Virus record (IMG/VR): IMGVR_UViG_3300045988_012479
Reading direction: 5' to 3' (one strand)
DNA: 5,980 bases
Origin: a virus
In this document: piece after piece, positions 246 to 5,980 of the stretch
Position numbering within the stretch: the stretch's first letter is position 1
Layout of the letters: each line of letters begins with the position of its first letter
Notes under the pieces: generated by a model
The model's database searches: none
What the model was told of the DNA's origin: nothing
Seen by the model: only the letters and a program-made list of their open reading frames with translations
Translations under genes and position numbers: made by a program

Positions 246-1265
246 GTGAGTTGCTACAAACCGTTAATACGGCTGTACAACCCTAACGACAAAAACATTA
301 GCGGGAGGGTGTATTCACTCTCCCGCTATTCTCAGTTAGTGGGGAGACAGCTAAAATATGAAGATTTGATGTTTAGAAAAAATGTAATGTTAATACCATG
401 CGGGCAGTGCATCGGATGCAGAATAAGACAAAGAGAGGACTGGACAACACGAATAGAATTAGAAGCACGAGACTATCCAAGAGAAGAAGTATGGTTTATC
501 ACAATGACTTACGACGATGACCACGTACCTGGCATGATAGTAAACACAGGCGAAATCATGAGAAAAGTACAATACATCTGGAAACCGGGAGAGAAGCGCC
601 CAGAAAGCGTCCAAACATTACTATATACTGACGTTCAAAAATTCTTAAAACGTCTCAGAAAGGCTTACAGGGGCAAATTACGCTATTTTGTGGCAGGAGA
701 GTATGGAGAACAAACAGCAAGACCACACTACCACATGATATTGTATGGATGGCAACCAACAGACCTAGAGCACCTATACAAAATACAACACAACGGATAT
801 TTCACAAGTAAATGGCTAGCAGACCTATGGGGCATGGGTCAAATACAAATAGCACAAGCAGTACCAGAAACCTATAGATATGTTGCAGGATACGTTACGA
901 AAAAAATGTACGAGATAGACGGAAAGAAAGCAAATGAATACTACGAACTAGGCCAACAAAAACCGTTCGCATGCATGAGCCTAAAGCCGGGATTGGGAGA
1001 CCACTATTACCAAGAACACAAAGAAGAAATATGGAGACAAGGCTACATCCAATGTACAAACGGAAAACTCGCACAGATTCCACGTTATTATGAAAAGATG
1101 ATGGAAGCTGAAAACCCACAAAGGTTGTGGAGAATTAAGCGAAACAGACAGGCAACAGCCATAGCAGAAAACCGACTAAAGTATGAAAATACAGACTTTG
1201 CAGAGCAATGCAAGACAAAAGAAAGGGTAATCAAGAAGCAAATGAAGAAGAAAGGGACACTCTAA
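246..1265 (+). CDS. Replication initiation protein VP4 (rolling-circle HUH endonuclease, phiX174 gpA-like)
   Basis: 339-aa ORF. It contains motif I WFITMTYDD (uuTuT), the HUH motif RPHYHMILYG, and the active-site motif RYVAGYVTKK, which closely matches phiX174 gpA ARYVAKYVNKK (two catalytic Tyr). The N-terminus MSCYKPL and a CGQCIGC Cys cluster are typical of Microviridae VP4. The GTG start at 246 has the SD GGAGGA at 234-239; if GTG is not used, the alternative start is ATG 364. Confidence 0.92.
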   Translation: MSCYKPLIRLYNPNDKNISGRVYSLSRYSQLVGRQLKYEDLMFRKNVMLIPCGQCIGCRIRQREDWTTRIELEARDYPREEVWFITMTYDDDHVPGMIVNTGEIMRKVQYIWKPGEKRPESVQTLLYTDVQKFLKRLRKAYRGKLRYFVAGEYGEQTARPHYHMILYGWQPTDLEHLYKIQHNGYFTSKWLADLWGMGQIQIAQAVPETYRYVAGYVTKKMYEIDGKKANEYYELGQQKPFACMSLKPGLGDHYYQEHKEEIWRQGYIQCTNGKLAQIPRYYEKMMEAENPQRLWRIKRNRQATAIAENRLKYENTDFAEQCKTKERVIKKQMKKKGTL

Positions 1266-1275
1266 CGGTGTCACC

Positions 1276-1318
1276 TAGCCCAGTACCTATCAAGTAAGTA
1301 CTGGGCTATTTTAGTTTT
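1276..1318 (+). terminator. Rho-independent terminator downstream of the Rep gene
   Basis: An 11-bp perfect inverted repeat, tagcccagtac (1276-1286) paired with gtactgggcta (1298-1308), with an 11-nt loop, is followed directly by ttttagtttt (1309-1318). It lies 11 nt after the VP4 stop. Confidence 0.7.
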
Positions 1319-1654: not shown

Positions 1655-1683
1655 TTGACAAGCAGAAAAAAAGATGCTAAAAT
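1655..1683 (+). promoter_or_regulatory. sigma70-type promoter P1: TTGACA - 17 nt - TGc TAAAAT with an upstream A-tract
   Basis: Perfect -35 TTGACA (1655-1660), a 17-nt spacer, -10 TAAAAT (1678-1683) preceded by a TGn extended -10 (1675-1676), and an A-rich UP-like tract aaaccaaaaaaaca (1641-1654). The predicted TSS is near 1690. Confidence 0.6.
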
Positions 1684-1869: not shown

Positions 1870-1898
1870 TTGAAAAGCCTATTGACAGATGGTATAAT
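1870..1898 (+). promoter_or_regulatory. sigma70-type promoter P2: TTGAAA - 17 nt - TGg TATAAT
   Basis: -35 TTGAAA (1870-1875), a 17-nt spacer, a consensus -10 TATAAT (1893-1898) with TG at 1890-1891, and an AT-rich upstream region. The predicted TSS is near 1905, about 20 nt before the first accessory ORF. Confidence 0.65.
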
Positions 1899-1924: not shown

Positions 1925-2110
1925 ATGAGGCACAGATACGAACTGAGAAAATTGAACGCTAACGATAGCATAACCACAGTATTAAGAATCAACGATGAAC
2001 CAAAAAGCGCAAAACGAATAGCAAAAAAATACGCAAACGAACACAAAGGAATCTATTCACTATACAAAATTGAAGAAGTAGAAATGTACTTCACCGAAAA
2101 AGAGAATTGA
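1925..2110 (+). CDS. Hypothetical small protein (61 aa from ATG 1925; the six-frame track starts it at GTG 1916)
   Basis: First ORF downstream of P2; an AAAGG motif lies 11 nt upstream of ATG 1925. The stop TGA 2108-2110 overlaps TTG 2107 of the next ORF. I recognise no family. Basic, K/E-rich. Confidence 0.5.
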   Translation: MRHRYELRKLNANDSITTVLRINDEPKSAKRIAKKYANEHKGIYSLYKIEEVEMYFTEKEN

Positions 2111-2115
2111 CGAAA

Positions 2116-2508
2116 ATGATTAAATGCTATATCATGAATACAGACGCAAACGAAAAAGTAGGAAAGCACTTTAAAGTGCGAGAATTTGCATGCAAGGACG
2201 GTTCACAAGTAGTTTTTATAGACGACTACCTAGTATCCATTCTAGATATCCTCAGAAACAAAGTCGAAAAGCCGGTATACATAAACAGCGGATACAGAAC
2301 ACCAGAGTGGAACAAAAAATGCAATGGAGCGAAATACAGCTACCATATGCGCGGTATGGCAGCAGATATCCGGGTTGAAGGAATGACCGCAAAACAGGTT
2401 GCCAACAAACTGAATGAAATCATCCCGGACGAATGCGGCATTATCGTATACAAAAGCTGGGTACACTTTGATGTACGAAGCGGCAAAAAATACAGAAAGG
2501 GGGTATAA
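2116..2508 (+). CDS. Zinc D-Ala-D-Ala carboxypeptidase-like peptidase, family M15 (Peptidase_M15_3-like); probable peptidoglycan hydrolase/endolysin
   Basis: The protein contains SGYRTPEWN ... YSYHMRGMAADI (H-x6-D zinc-ligand motif) ... WVHFDVR (third His), which is the M15 pattern seen in small phage cell-wall peptidases. The start is ambiguous: TTG 2107 (overlapping the upstream stop), ATG 2116 (chosen here) or ATG 2134. Confidence 0.88.
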   Translation: MIKCYIMNTDANEKVGKHFKVREFACKDGSQVVFIDDYLVSILDILRNKVEKPVYINSGYRTPEWNKKCNGAKYSYHMRGMAADIRVEGMTAKQVANKLNEIIPDECGIIVYKSWVHFDVRSGKKYRKGV

Positions 2509-2509
2509 A

Positions 2510-2632
2510 ATGGCGCTTATTTCTATTAAAGACGTCAAGCAGGCAATTCGCCTCATGATGCAGATTTTGGAAAAGCTGGACGAGATCTATCATGCACTGC
2601 ACGATAGCATCAACGAAGAAAAAGAGGAGTAA
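2510..2632 (+). CDS. Hypothetical 40-aa protein (MALISIKDVKQAIRLMMQILEKLDEIYHALHDSINEEKEE)
   Basis: SD AAGGGGG (2497-2503) lies 6 nt upstream of ATG 2510, which starts 2 nt after the peptidase stop. Amphipathic helix-like, with an acidic C-terminus. The track's longer version from 2414 overlaps the peptidase gene and has no RBS. Confidence 0.45.
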   Translation: MALISIKDVKQAIRLMMQILEKLDEIYHALHDSINEEKEE

Positions 2633-2635
2633 ACC

Positions 2636-2863
2636 ATGATGAACAAAACATGGAACGTAAGAGACCAGACCAAAAAAGCGCTTGAAGAGTTGCTAACTCG
2701 AAAGTACAAAGAGATCGATAGCGAATACAAAATGCTGCGCAAAGTAACCAGCATCCAAGACGCAAAGAAACTGCTGGATGAAATATGGCAGATGAAAAGT
2801 TTTGCAAACACAATCGAAATGGAGCTAATCAGAAGGGAGTACAACGATGGCACAGCATCGTAA
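2636..2863 (+). CDS. Hypothetical 75-aa protein
   Basis: SD GAGGAG (2622-2627) lies 8 nt upstream of ATG 2636, immediately after the upstream stop. Charged, helical composition; no recognisable family. Confidence 0.55.
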   Translation: MMNKTWNVRDQTKKALEELLTRKYKEIDSEYKMLRKVTSIQDAKKLLDEIWQMKSFANTIEMELIRREYNDGTAS

Positions 2864-2969
2864 GAAGATGAACGGCGCAAAAGACCGCCGAATGTTTAAC
2901 GTAACAGCACGAAAAACCAAAACGATTAACCTCAGCCAAAAGCCCATGCGAGGCGGAATCCGACTGTAA
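2847..2969 (+). CDS. Small Arg/Lys-rich protein (40 aa, MAQHRKKMNGAKDRRMFNVTARKTKTINLSQKPMRGGIRL); candidate DNA-binding/packaging protein (phiX J analogue, gokushovirus ORF8/VP8-like)
   Basis: SD AAGGGAG (2833-2839) lies 7 nt upstream of ATG 2847. 12 of 40 residues are R/K, with a C-terminal PMRGGIRL tail. Microviridae encode small basic J-like proteins that are packaged with the ssDNA. It overlaps the 3' end of the 75-aa ORF by 17 nt in another frame. It is below the 60-aa cutoff of the supplied ORF track. Confidence 0.5.
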   Translation: MAQHRKKMNGAKDRRMFNVTARKTKTINLSQKPMRGGIRL

Positions 2970-2985: not shown

Positions 2986-3225
2986 ATGGAACATCTGTAT
3001 TACGGCATTTGGGACAACGTGGCAAAATGCTACGCATGGGTAGGCGAAAGCAAAAACGACGGGACTTTTGCACGAATGTGCAACACAATGGCAAAGGACA
3101 AAGGAACCTTCATCGGGCAGAGTCCGCAGGACTACACCGGCTTTAAACTGGCAACGTTTGAGGATGAGCTTGGAACGTTCACGAACGACAACGAAAAGGT
3201 GTGGGAGGGCAAGCCGAATGAATAA
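2986..3225 (+). CDS. Hypothetical 79-aa protein with a triplicated GTF motif (DGTFARM / KGTFIGQ / LGTFTND)
   Basis: SD GAGGAG (2971-2976) lies 9 nt upstream of ATG 2986. Its stop TAA 3223-3225 overlaps the next start (ATGAATAA). No recognisable family. Confidence 0.55.
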   Translation: MEHLYYGIWDNVAKCYAWVGESKNDGTFARMCNTMAKDKGTFIGQSPQDYTGFKLATFEDELGTFTNDNEKVWEGKPNE

Positions 3226-3616
3226 GCGATACGAGGAAGGGCGAGAGCCCTTCTTTTCAAATTCAGGCGAAAAACTGCGAAGACAGTACATCTGGACAAA
3301 GGACGAAAAAGGGAAAGAAGTGTTGCAGGAAACCGAGCCAATTGACATCCAGCAGGAAATCGAAAGCTATGCGGACGAATGTGACATCAAAAACATTGTT
3401 CGGAAAGCGAGTTTCGACCCGGAATTCCTGAAAAGCTTGTCACAAGGTGCTATGGAAGGCGTAGAAATAGACGTGACCGAATGGCCGCAAAACATCCACG
3501 AGTATCACCAGATGATCGCGACCGCACAAGTAAACGCAATGAAGCTCAAAGAGCTGGAAGAACAAAGCAAAGCACAGAAAGAAGAATCAGCAGAAAGGAG
3601 TGAAACGGCAGAATGA
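3218..3616 (+). CDS. Acidic 132-aa protein, putative internal scaffolding protein (VP3-like), translationally coupled to VP1
   Basis: SD GGGAGGG (3203-3209) lies 8 nt upstream of ATG 3218. Highly acidic (E/D-rich), about 130 aa, and located directly upstream of the major capsid gene with an ATGA stop/start overlap at 3613-3616, as expected for a gokushovirus VP3 scaffold. The assignment rests on size, charge and position only; the track's longer start at 3068 overlaps the previous gene. Confidence 0.6.
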   Translation: MNKRYEEGREPFFSNSGEKLRRQYIWTKDEKGKEVLQETEPIDIQQEIESYADECDIKNIVRKASFDPEFLKSLSQGAMEGVEIDVTEWPQNIHEYHQMIATAQVNAMKLKELEEQSKAQKEESAERSETAE

Positions 3617-5277
3617 ACAGAAACAACGAAAGACACTTTCTGAACGTACCGCAGATGCACACGAGCAGAACGAGATTCAACCGAGACCAGACAATCCTAA
3701 CCACATTCGACAGCGGCAAGCTCATTCCGTTCTTTGTAGACGAAGTGCTGCCGGGCGACACGTTCCAGGTAGACACCAGCGCAATCATCCGCATGACTAC
3801 ACCGAAGTATCCGGTCATGGACGATGCATTCATTGACTTCTACTACTTCTACTGTCCAAACCGAATCCTATGGGACGACTTCAAGAGATTCATGGGAGAA
3901 GCAGACCAAACAGCATGGATGCCAACCAAAACCTACAGCGTGCCGAAAATCAAAATCGAAGCAGGTAAAGCGTCACCAAAAATTCCGGGGCCGAAAGAAA
4001 AAAGCATTCTCGACTACATGGGAGTGCCAACGAAAATCGAAAACGAATTCAAAATAAACGCGCTGCCAGTCCGTGCATATGTCATGATTTGGAATGAATA
4101 TTTCAGAGACCAGAACGTAGAAAATGCAGCAGTACTAAAAACAGACAGCGAAGAAGTCACATACAGCGACAACGAACCAGAAAACGTAGAAAGAACACTT
4201 AGAGAAGCGGTGACGGGTGGTCGCTGTCTTCCCGTAAACCGTTTCCACGACTACTTCTCAAGTTGTTTACCTTATCCGCAGCGCGGACCGGAGGTAACAG
4301 TACCAATGACAGGTAATGCACCAGTATTCGGATACAGCACCATCCAAGACAGCGAAAAATTAACAGATAAAATAATTCTAAACCAACCGTGGCCAACAAA
4401 CAGCACAACGGATTTTTATAACACGGAAAAAGGAGGAAAACTGACAGGAAAAGGCGCACTGAATGGAGGTAGCTACACTGCAGAAGCATTCCTAAAAGCA
4501 GACCTCAGCGCCGTAACCGCAACAACCATCAACGAACTGCGAAACGCAATTGCAGTGCAGCAGTACTACGAAACAATGGCACGAGGCGGAAGCCGATACC
4601 GTGAACAGGTACAGGCACTATGGAATGTAACCATCAGCGACAAAACGGCACAGATTCCGGAATATCTTGGCGGTGGCCGCTATCGCGTCGGAATGAACCA
4701 GATCGTACAGACAAGCGGACAGCAGAGCGAGAACGATACACCTATTGGCGAAACCGGTGCAATGTCAGTAACGCCAATCAACGAAAGTTCCTTCACGAAG
4801 AGCTTTGAAGAACACGGGTTTGTAATTGGTGTGTTGTGCGTGCGCCACAGCAGAACGTACCAGCAGGGACTTGAACGTTTCTGGAGCAGAACCGACAGGC
4901 TGGACTATTATGTACCTCAGTTTGCAAATCTGGGCGAACAGCCTGTAAAGAAAAAAGAAATCATGTTAACCGGCACGAAAACTGATGAAGAAACATTTGG
5001 CTACCAAGAGGCCTGGGCCGATTACAGAATGAAGCCGAACCGAGTGAGCGGCCTCATGAGAAGCAACGCAACAGGCACGTTGGATTTCTGGCACTATGCA
5101 GACAACTACTCAACTACGCCTACACTGTCTCAGGAATGGATGGCAGAAGGCAAAAAAGAAATTGAAAGAACACTCATCGTACAGAATGAAGATCAATTCT
5201 TCGGTGCAATTCGTGTAGCAAACAAGACCACACGTTGCATGCCCTTGTACAGTGTACCGGGCTTGTACAAACTGTAA
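3613..5277 (+). CDS. Major capsid protein VP1 (Microviridae F-like, Gokushovirinae-type)
   Basis: 554 aa. The N-terminal region HFLNVPQMHTSRTRFNRDQTILTTFDSGKLIPFFVDEVLPGDTF ... FYYFYCPNRILWDDFKRFMGE is the characteristic gokushovirus VP1 signature (PGDTF, the FxVPxRxxW..F..F.GE block). The size matches VP1 with its hypervariable insertion loop. SD AAAGGAG at 3593-3599. Confidence 0.96.
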   Translation: MNRNNERHFLNVPQMHTSRTRFNRDQTILTTFDSGKLIPFFVDEVLPGDTFQVDTSAIIRMTTPKYPVMDDAFIDFYYFYCPNRILWDDFKRFMGEADQTAWMPTKTYSVPKIKIEAGKASPKIPGPKEKSILDYMGVPTKIENEFKINALPVRAYVMIWNEYFRDQNVENAAVLKTDSEEVTYSDNEPENVERTLREAVTGGRCLPVNRFHDYFSSCLPYPQRGPEVTVPMTGNAPVFGYSTIQDSEKLTDKIILNQPWPTNSTTDFYNTEKGGKLTGKGALNGGSYTAEAFLKADLSAVTATTINELRNAIAVQQYYETMARGGSRYREQVQALWNVTISDKTAQIPEYLGGGRYRVGMNQIVQTSGQQSENDTPIGETGAMSVTPINESSFTKSFEEHGFVIGVLCVRHSRTYQQGLERFWSRTDRLDYYVPQFANLGEQPVKKKEIMLTGTKTDEETFGYQEAWADYRMKPNRVSGLMRSNATGTLDFWHYADNYSTTPTLSQEWMAEGKKEIERTLIVQNEDQFFGAIRVANKTTRCMPLYSVPGLYKL

Positions 5278-5315: not shown

Positions 5316-5980
5316 ATGAGCGTTTTATCAACAATCGGTGGAATAGCAGCAAAAGGCTTACAGTGGGCAGCGGCAAATCCACAATTAGTCACAGGAGCAA
5401 TGACACTGGCGGGAAAAGGTCTACAAGGACTATACGGACAGCAAAGCCAAAGCCAAAGCCAAGGGTACAACCAAAGCCAAAGCCAAGGAGGAGGACAAAG
5501 CAGCAGCAGCAGCCAAGGTGGAACCAATGACCAATTAATCCAAGACTATCTTAAACAGTTCTACAACTGGCAGAGCGGGCAAAACGAATTCCAGAGCAAA
5601 ACAAACCGACAAAACATGTTAATGCAAATGGGTTACAACACCCTAGGCGCAATCCAACAGGGAATCTATAACCAAATTGAACGCAATGCAGCCATGAACT
5701 ACAACAGCGCAGAAGCTCTGAAAAACAGAGAGTTTCAAGAACGCATGTCAAGCACAGCATACCAAAGAGCAGTTGAGGATATGAAAAAAGCCGGAATAAA
5801 TCCTATCCTAGCATACGCACAAGGTGGAGCGAGCACACCGGGAGGCTCAGGAGCAACCATCACAGGCGCAAGCATGGGACTACCGTCCGCAAGTGCACTA
5901 GGCGTGTCAACAATGTCAGGTAACGTACCAAACAGCTACTACAGCCGGTCAGAAAGTCAAAGCCAATGGTATCAGCTCGC
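5316..5980 (+). CDS. Minor capsid / DNA pilot protein VP2 (N-terminal 221 codons; the ORF runs off the window end and continues at bases 56-245)
   Basis: ATG 5316. It has a glycine-rich, hydrophobic N-terminus, an SQ/G low-complexity linker, and the conserved block FQERMSSTAYQRAVEDMKKAGINPILAYAQGG typical of Microviridae VP2/H-like pilot proteins. It follows VP1 directly, as in gokushoviruses. Confidence 0.88.
   Translation, partial: MSVLSTIGGIAAKGLQWAAANPQLVTGAMTLAGKGLQGLYGQQSQSQSQGYNQSQSQGGGQSSSSSQGGTNDQLIQDYLKQFYNWQSGQNEFQSKTNRQNMLMQMGYNTLGAIQQGIYNQIERNAAMNYNSAEALKNREFQERMSSTAYQRAVEDMKKAGINPILAYAQGGASTPGGSGATITGASMGLPSASALGVSTMSGNVPNSYYSRSESQSQWYQL
5442..5517 (+). repeat. Microsatellite-like tract inside VP2: (CAAAGC)3 ... 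(CAAAGC)2 ... GGAGGAGGA ... (CAG/AGC)5
   Basis: Hexanucleotide and trinucleotide tandem repeats read directly from the sequence; they encode SQSQSQGYNQSQSQGGGQSSSSSQGG. Confidence 0.8.

Follow-up and report, generated by a model that had tools for sequence, protein, structure and literature searches.

The 5,980-nt stretch of DNA analysed here (IMG/VR record IMGVR_UViG_3300045988_012479; hereafter, the window) is the complete genome of a gokushovirus-like member of the Microviridae, and it carries a gene for a zinc peptidase of family M15 at positions 2116–2508. On balance, we take the product to be a muralytic endolysin that would be made in the cytoplasm for the release of progeny, with an agent other than a classical holin presumably breaching the membrane. 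The enzyme itself is ordinary. What is added here is that the absence of a holin-like open reading frame (ORF) is a trait of the clade, being shared by 93 of 94 peptidase-bearing genomes from two microvirus lineages, and that it sharpens the problem to one of what takes the place of the holin. Gut microviruses carrying relatives of this peptidase are very abundant (1,823 protein clusters; at least 557 IMG/VR contigs). An initial annotation of the window had described an M15 peptidase in a genome without holin, transmembrane (TM) or signal-peptide ORFs. That observation is confirmed, and its interpretation is partly supported, as detailed below.

The plus-strand ORF ends at 2508 and may start at either TTG 2107 or ATG 2116. 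The ENA and Logan gene callers place the start at ATG 2116, which gives a product of 130 aa, and 2116–2508 is the right extent because homologues are conserved from M1 on; in alignments with homologues, those of tailed phages among them, the match begins at residue 2. The protein matches Pfam Peptidase_M15_3 (PF08291; E=5.4e-20; score 72 bits, cut-off 23.2) over the entire profile (1–108 of 108), as well as PHROG 894 'endolysin' (E=2.1e-42). On the strength of these matches, it is assigned to subfamily M15A / Peptidase_M15_3 as a single-domain protein. The gene and its motifs are as follows.

2116–2508, plus strand: peptidase (Pfam Peptidase_M15_3; PHROG 894).
2287–2298, plus strand: S58-G-Y-R61 motif, aligned to GGFR of 1LBU.
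2344–2367, plus strand: zinc motif H77-x6-D84 (SYHMRGMAAD), read from the sequence and aligned to the 1LBU motif.
2458–2472, plus strand: W115-V-H117-F-D119, a WxH motif with the third zinc ligand, read from the sequence.

Subfamily M15A is defined by the HxxxxxxD motif (PMC5025407) and by a second motif, (W/F)xH, which provides the third zinc ligand; LysPM1 features an equivalent triad. The predicted zinc ligands in the window are H77 (codon at 2344–2346), D84 (2365–2367) and H117 (2464–2466). These residues, W115, D119 and the SGYR61 motif are invariant in 31/31 homologues (78–100% identity). The triad is hence not degenerate, and the intact zinc ligands reported initially hold. S58-G-Y-R61 probably binds the substrate carboxylate.

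The sole solved structure with a sequence match is 1LBU, the Streptomyces albus G zinc D-Ala-D-Ala carboxypeptidase that serves as type enzyme for M15A; this match spans exactly the M15A motifs. The two enzymes are approximately 19–24% identical, and 1LBU differs in being secreted, in its length of 213 aa and in an extra N-terminal wall-binding domain. An AlphaFold model of the peptidase (pLDDT 78) retrieved only LAS / M15 folds as top matches in both structure searches, including Shh-N, 1LBU, VanX, MepA, VanY, phage L-Ala-D-Glu peptidases and Ply500; as modelled, the protein has the Hedgehog / DD-peptidase (LAS) fold. The JGI product name is 'YcbK (DUF882 family)'. E. coli MepK (YcbK, DUF882 / Peptidase_M15_2), a murein L,D-endopeptidase, belongs to the same clan, but MepK-type matches are weak (PF05951, 29.8 bits; NCBIfam PtglEndpepMepK, equivalog NF053624, 40.8 bits against a cut-off of 185). 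The microvirus peptidase is not a member of that family, and has neither a Tat nor a Sec signal.

The peptidase is small (15 kDa) and basic (net charge +8), and lacks a signal peptide, a TM segment and a cell-wall-binding domain. At its N-terminus (MIKCYIMNTDANEKVGKHFKVREF), Kyte-Doolittle (KD) hydropathy over 10 residues does not exceed 0.61 within the first 35 residues. A hydrophobic upstream in-frame extension, as in signal-anchor-release (SAR) or signal-peptide endolysins, was found neither in the window nor in its relatives. The putative muralytic enzyme without an export signal that is typical of a lysis cassette thus appears to be present, and the canonical holin is missing, no ORF of the window having a PHROG or Pfam holin match.

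Every stop-to-stop frame of 20 aa or more in the circularised genome was screened for membrane segments, by hydropathy only, in KD windows of 19 residues. No plus-strand frame reaches the usual TM threshold of KD 1.6; the best value, 1.38, lies inside the peptidase core itself. Among the supported ORFs, none has a signal-like N-terminus, and the Gly/Ala-rich stretch of the pilot protein VP2 alone is mildly hydrophobic. For the coding strand, the claim that the genome has no holin, TM or signal-peptide ORF survived re-analysis. phiX174, likewise a tiny genome that needs lysis with minimal coding capacity, relies on the MraY inhibitor E, a small membrane protein whose frame is overprinted on gene D. 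In contrast, the candidate in the window is a soluble putative hydrolase, and the three plus-strand frames, overprinted ones included, hold no hydrophobic segment that could encode an E-type protein.

As positive controls, six of seven membrane proteins scored KD 1.9–2.8, while the annotated holin of Faecalibacterium phage FP_oengus reached just 1.43 (L104 3154–3405). Thresholds of 1.6–1.9 can thus miss true holins, and because of this control the negative is strong but not absolute. The same screen was extended to 98 relatives, of which GenBank supplied 18 and IMG/VR 80, with three misassembled or chimeric contigs set aside from the TM-ORF tally. All peptidase-bearing relatives except KT264793 lack a credible plus-strand TM ORF or signal peptide, and since this holds for 93 of the 94, the absence of a holin is a feature of the clade in both lineages.

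The exception belongs to a family of single-TM ORFs of approximately 38 aa (pattern ...IAMCSA.FALI.MGIDIIKNW.K..) located between the VP8-like gene and VP5. Their GTG start overlaps the VP8-like stop, and they have no GenBank annotation. Members map to L014 (KT264793) 5057–5176, L018 (KT264790) 5148–5264, L186, L187 and L188; carriers are the peptidase-less sister clade (KT264788, KT264789, KT264790 and PV067914) and a single peptidase-bearing genome. The family is a candidate gokushovirus lysis or holin-like protein.

A partner may have escaped the screen, either as a minus-strand ORF, as a tiny or weakly hydrophobic protein, or in the form of ORF40 (the ORF directly 3' of the peptidase gene) or VP2 acting on the membrane. 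We consider this unlikely. On the minus strand, 48/98 frames hold hydrophobic windows, and Roux et al. remarked on one genome with an ORF next to the peptidase on the complementary strand (PMC3394797). Nevertheless, minus-strand ORFs are as numerous and as long as expected from 300 synonymous-codon shuffles (15 versus 15.2 expected at 60 aa or more; 6 versus 5.7 at 90 aa or more), and none has a PHROG match. Their hydrophobicity is explained by base composition, because the plus strand is T-poor (17–19% T in relatives; 0.09–0.15 at third codon positions in most window genes) and the minus strand correspondingly T-rich. Minus-strand promoter-like sites are also weak, with 9/12 matches. A minus-strand holin was accordingly rejected as evidence. 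A weakly hydrophobic protein gains some credit from the annotated holin at KD 1.43 and from the 39-aa TM ORF of KT264793, which has a homologue in the peptidase-less sister clade; in the window, however, the VP8-like gene and VP5 are just 16 nt apart at that position.

ORF40 (40 aa, MALISIKDVKQAIRLMMQILEKLDEIYHALHDSINEEKEE) starts 1 nt past the peptidase stop and has a strong Shine-Dalgarno sequence. The N-terminal half forms a predicted, strongly amphipathic helix (hydrophobic moment 0.70), followed by an acidic tail. It is conserved with the peptidase in 92/94 genomes, including those of the second lineage (~75% identity), and few proteins of the clade are as well conserved (median 90% identity; ratio of nonsynonymous to synonymous substitutions, dN/dS, 0.08). 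This conservation and the amphipathic helix speak for a membrane-active partner, while its net charge of -4 speaks against it. That ORF40 is a functional partner of the peptidase is possible but unproven. In VP2, the Gly/Ala-rich N-terminus scores KD 1.83 over 10 residues and approximately 1.0 over 19, compared with KD19 values of 1.5–1.85 in relatives. ORF64, directly 5' of the peptidase, is a hydrophilic, variable accessory ORF (61 aa from ATG) that few relatives have. Family searches returned no match for ORF40 or ORF64.

In the endolysin reading that we prefer, the peptidase would accumulate in the cytoplasm and would cut the stem peptides of the sacculus only after the cytoplasmic membrane had been compromised. 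The compromising agent would not be a classical holin. VP2, by virtue of its hydrophobic Gly/Ala N-terminus, and ORF40 would be the only genome-encoded candidates for the membrane step, and a host or resident-prophage function would be equally possible. The gene was probably taken over long ago, minus the holin, from the lysis cassette of a tailed phage, and has since been exchanged among microvirus lineages as part of a module. Several points weigh against this reading. The mechanism is short of one essential step, because no protein was found that would let a folded 15-kDa enzyme pass. ORF40 is net acidic, a divergent homologue of it occurs in two peptidase-less genomes, and partner roles for VP2 and ORF40 are guesses. 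Moreover, the peptidase start has the weakest Shine-Dalgarno sequence in the genome, and the literature searched contains no experiments on a microviral M15 peptidase or on how such an enzyme manages without a holin.

Tailed-phage M15A endolysins, such as those of FP_oengus and Lelie, ST79, LysPM1 and Spp64, resemble the microvirus enzyme. They consist of a single Peptidase_M15_3 domain of ~115–140 aa, carry the HxxxxxxD and WxH motifs, and have no wall-binding domain. The enzymes of ST79 (Burkholderia), Spp64 (Shewanella) and LysPM1 (Proteus) have been established experimentally as peptidoglycan-degrading endolysins. In these tailed phages, M15A genes adjoin holins or membrane proteins (ST79 also has spanin-type LysB/LysC), whereas the microvirus enzyme stands alone.

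The lack of a holin-like ORF throughout the clade would be accounted for if the peptidase acted as a single effector from within, cleaving the stem peptide of UDP-MurNAc-pentapeptide or of inner-leaflet lipid II. Wall synthesis would then be starved or poisoned, and growing cells would lyse, making the peptidase an enzymatic counterpart of such 'protein antibiotics' as phiX174 E, Qbeta A2 and the Lys protein of phage M. Small phages typically lyse their hosts by blocking murein synthesis, which counts in favour of this scheme, as does the fact that VanX and VanXY, of the M15 / LAS fold and among the structural matches, cleave cytoplasmic precursors. Two findings make it improbable nonetheless. 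The nearest homologues reside in holin-bearing tailed-phage cassettes and share the same N- and C-termini, and relative to them the microviral sequence shows no specialisation. In addition, the ST79 M15A endolysin was overproduced in the cytoplasm of E. coli and purified, which suggests that this bacterium, at any rate, is not killed by an M15A enzyme in its cytoplasm. A bolder version, in which the peptidase would be the sole sufficient lysis effector of the whole gut-microvirus clade, holin-free, either by destroying precursors or with ORF40 or VP2 as partner, is likewise doubtful. If true, this sole-effector or non-holin-partner reading would be a lysis strategy new for any phage and would settle the exit route of the peptidase-bearing gokushoviruses.

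The peptidase might alternatively serve at entry, as a capsid-borne enzyme that opens the wall locally at infection rather than releasing progeny, a possibility that had been raised in the initial annotation. Such an enzyme would need no holin, would be useful on a thick Gram-positive wall, and would suit a host that may be of the Clostridia type; the peptidase is also small and basic (net charge +8). We rate this as quite unlikely. The protein features no fusion to a structural protein and no docking domain, and its gene lies apart from the capsid genes, ORF40, ORF75 and the VP8-like gene being interposed. The functionally annotated homologues (FP_oengus, FP_Toutatis and PHROG 894) are labelled as endolysins and not as virion proteins, and release would be left unexplained. 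Wall hydrolases are not known from the T=1 particle of any microvirus.

The peptidase gene is subject to purifying selection, as its median dN/dS against 88 relatives (0.16) is close to that of VP1 (0.14); the value for VP4 is 0.07. This result bears on a non-lytic role, in which the enzyme would remodel the wall (in superinfection exclusion or chronic infection) or would be a dispensable passenger. Sister genomes manage without the peptidase, and gokushovirus lysis in general is unexplained (PMC7062461). A role of this kind is nevertheless very unlikely, given the strong purifying selection, the intact catalytic residues in all homologues, the conserved position and the near-universal retention of the gene in two lineages. 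Furthermore, a cytoplasmic enzyme meets the same problem of access to the wall whatever its role.

At the family level the gene is accessory, in agreement with the initial annotation, as it is absent from six sister genomes (MG945780, MG945138, KT264788, KT264789, KT264790 and PV067914). The horizontal origin that had been proposed is supported, and a recent acquisition is not. GC content (0.412), GC at third codon positions (GC3; 0.466), AT skew and codon adaptation (0.69) are all within the range of the core genes, and recent horizontal transfer was rejected because these composition and codon tests show no departure from them. A foreign source is supported by the nearest non-microviral homologues. 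The best of these are found in the Faecalibacterium phages FP_oengus (43% identity) and Lelie (42%), and bacterial chromosomal matches, none above 46% identity, come almost entirely from Clostridia / Bacillota. The gene annotated as endolysin in FP_oengus is followed by genes for a TM protein and the annotated holin; in Lelie, the peptidase gene is followed by genes for two unannotated TM proteins. None of these cassette partners is similar to ORFs of the window. Ultimately, the gene seems to stem from the lysis cassette of a Clostridia tailed phage.

Within the microviruses, the peptidase has a history of its own. Within the lineage of the window, identity of the peptidase is uncorrelated with that of VP1 or VP4 (Spearman 0.08 and 0.05, respectively), while VP1 and VP4 correlate with one another (0.65). 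The second lineage (L024, L030, L035, L044 and others; 23 IMG/VR loci) is only approximately 40% identical to the window in VP1 and 37% in VP4; nonetheless, identity is approximately 80% in the peptidase, 75% in ORF40, and 80–93% in intergenic elements. These figures indicate that the regulatory region and the peptidase have been exchanged as a module between microvirus families, a pattern that agrees with the inter-family recombination of the peptidase region described by Kirchberger et al. 2022. One genome of the second lineage, L030, also features a tandem array of a ~15-nt unit (GCTGCATGCTGAAGG) 3' of the VP8-like gene, from ~5740 to the contig end.

Species-representative bacterial genomes yielded no integrated prophage from the clade. 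The best matches there, at 52–54% identity, are microvirus-sized contigs binned into metagenome-assembled genomes. Microvirus prophages have been reported in Gram-positive bacteria. A 29-kb contig (L019, ENA ERZ1742712) links Firmicute spore-germination, trigger-factor and glgB genes to 540 nt of microvirus sequence (9882–10419; the 3' half of ORF64 and the peptidase). A chimera produced by assembly is the most likely explanation, because the junction cuts glgB and ORF64 mid-gene and the contig stops 26 nt past the peptidase, and the contig was not used to assign a host.

Peptidases of this kind in gut gokushoviruses are already known. Roux et al. 2012 identified M15_3 peptidases in 11 human-associated Microviridae, five of which were Gokushovirinae (PMC3394797). 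They pointed out the Faecalibacterium affinity, proposed horizontal gene transfer (HGT) and an endolysin role, and contrasted the enzyme with phiX174 E and holin-endolysin systems (PMC3394797). The endolysin / HGT reading was restated in papers of 2020, 2022 and 2024, and GenBank relatives are labelled 'peptidase M15' (KX513868, KX513876 and KX513877) or 'similar to peptidase' (MG945xxx). The M15_3 genes of human-gut Gokushovirinae and Alpavirinae are like that of the window in family, in their position between VP4 and VP5, and in protein sequence (61–84% identity). There is no essential difference, and the window is a further member of the group.

The window begins and ends with the same 55 nt, an exact copy of 1–55 being present at 5926–5980. 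Because the ends are identical, the genome is circular and was assembled past its own start; it comprises 5,925 nt plus the 55-nt terminal repeat. After circularisation, all supported genes map to the plus strand, and the gokushovirus set (VP1, VP2, VP3, VP4 and VP5) is present on this one strand, as expected of circular gokushovirus-type genomes, which measure about 4.5–6 kb. The genome is 73–80% identical at the nucleotide level to GenBank gut gokushoviruses of human, pig and monkey, classified as Gokushovirinae in their records, and 100% identical to a gut-metagenome scaffold in ENA. Rfam and tRNA scans of the window returned no match. Apart from the peptidase gene, the layout is as follows.

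246–1265, plus strand: VP4, replication protein (Pfam REP_ORF2-G2P; PHROG 942).
1266–1924: intergenic or variable region without a supported ORF.
1925–2110, plus strand: ORF64, without a family match.
2510–2632, plus strand: ORF40, without a family match.
2636–2863, plus strand: ORF75, without a family match.
2847–2969, plus strand: basic VP8-like ORF (PHROG 10695).
2986–3225, plus strand: VP5 (Pfam Phage_ORF5).
3218–3616, plus strand: VP3 (Pfam Chlamy_scaf).
3613–5277, plus strand: VP1 (Pfam Phage_F, E=2e-137).
5316–5980, then 56–245 across the junction, plus strand: VP2 pilot protein, 284 aa (PHROG 8742 'pilot protein for DNA ejection', E=1e-103).

The peptidase is thus near the head of a gene block that runs in the order ORF64, peptidase, ORF40, ORF75, VP8-like, VP5, VP3 and VP1. 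Three signals flank this block on its 5' side.

1276–1308, plus strand: hairpin followed by a TTTTAGTTTT T-run, directly 3' of the VP4 stop.
1655–1683, plus strand: promoter-like site P1 (TTGACA, 17-nt spacer, TAAAAT, with TG), 11/12 positions.
1870–1898, plus strand: promoter-like site P2 (TTGAAA, 17-nt spacer, TATAAT, with a TG extended -10), 11/12 positions.

P1 and P2 are the two best sigma-70-type promoter-like sites of the genome, and both are located upstream of the peptidase. Sites matching at least 10/12 positions occur within 500 nt 5' of the peptidase in 81/90 relatives, against a background of 0.15 per 500 nt. The P1 and P2 regions form a diverged 44-nt direct repeat (1647–1690 and 1862–1905). 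The relative L192, which is ~96–98% identical over this part, lacks 1676–1861, exactly between P1 and P2; because of this, the interval and the small ORFs at 1655–1789 and 1786–1962 are dispensable. The hairpin region (1266–1310) is mostly 90–98% identical in relatives and 75–83% identical in the three most distant ones, and the hairpin is probably the terminator of a long rightward transcript. A terminator-like hairpin is also found 3' of VP1.

Most genes feature strong GGAGG-type ribosome-binding sites. Together, the signals appear to suit a host that uses sigma-A-type promoters and initiates translation in a Shine-Dalgarno-dependent way, and not Bacteroidota. Judging from the affinities of the peptidase, from promoters with an extended -10 and from the strength of the Shine-Dalgarno sites, a gut bacterium of the Clostridia / Bacillota is the probable host. 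The range of likely hosts is thereby narrowed, with Clostridia as the leading candidate.

The intergenic region holds further elements. An element of ~212 nt (1314–1525) is full of TTCAACA repeats spaced by ~9 nt. Most of its columns are at least 90% conserved, in unbroken runs and with no codon periodicity, and it is far better conserved than the synonymous sites of neighbouring genes. The element is inverted in 68/96 related genomes, the orientation of the window being found in 28, and in the second lineage it is located upstream of VP4, not downstream. It is not a fast switch, because close relatives (92–100% identity) keep the orientation of the window. As single-stranded DNA it is largely unstructured. 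The element may be an origin, or else a set of sites to which proteins bind. A Leu/Lys-rich '...VENLLKVLKVLK...' ORF was considered as an amphipathic lysis peptide and was judged non-coding, because the element is conserved at the nucleotide level, has no codon periodicity and occurs in both orientations.

Just 5' of P1, a 57-nt stretch (1592–1648; also 1535–1559) is 84–93% identical even in the second lineage and holds a GCGC-TAAA-GCGC mini-hairpin. A perfect 13-bp palindrome (ACCATTTTCGGGA / TCCCGAAAATGGT) is present at 1560–1587, within a stretch that is unaligned in most aligned relatives; read on the minus strand, it resembles a terminator with a T-run.

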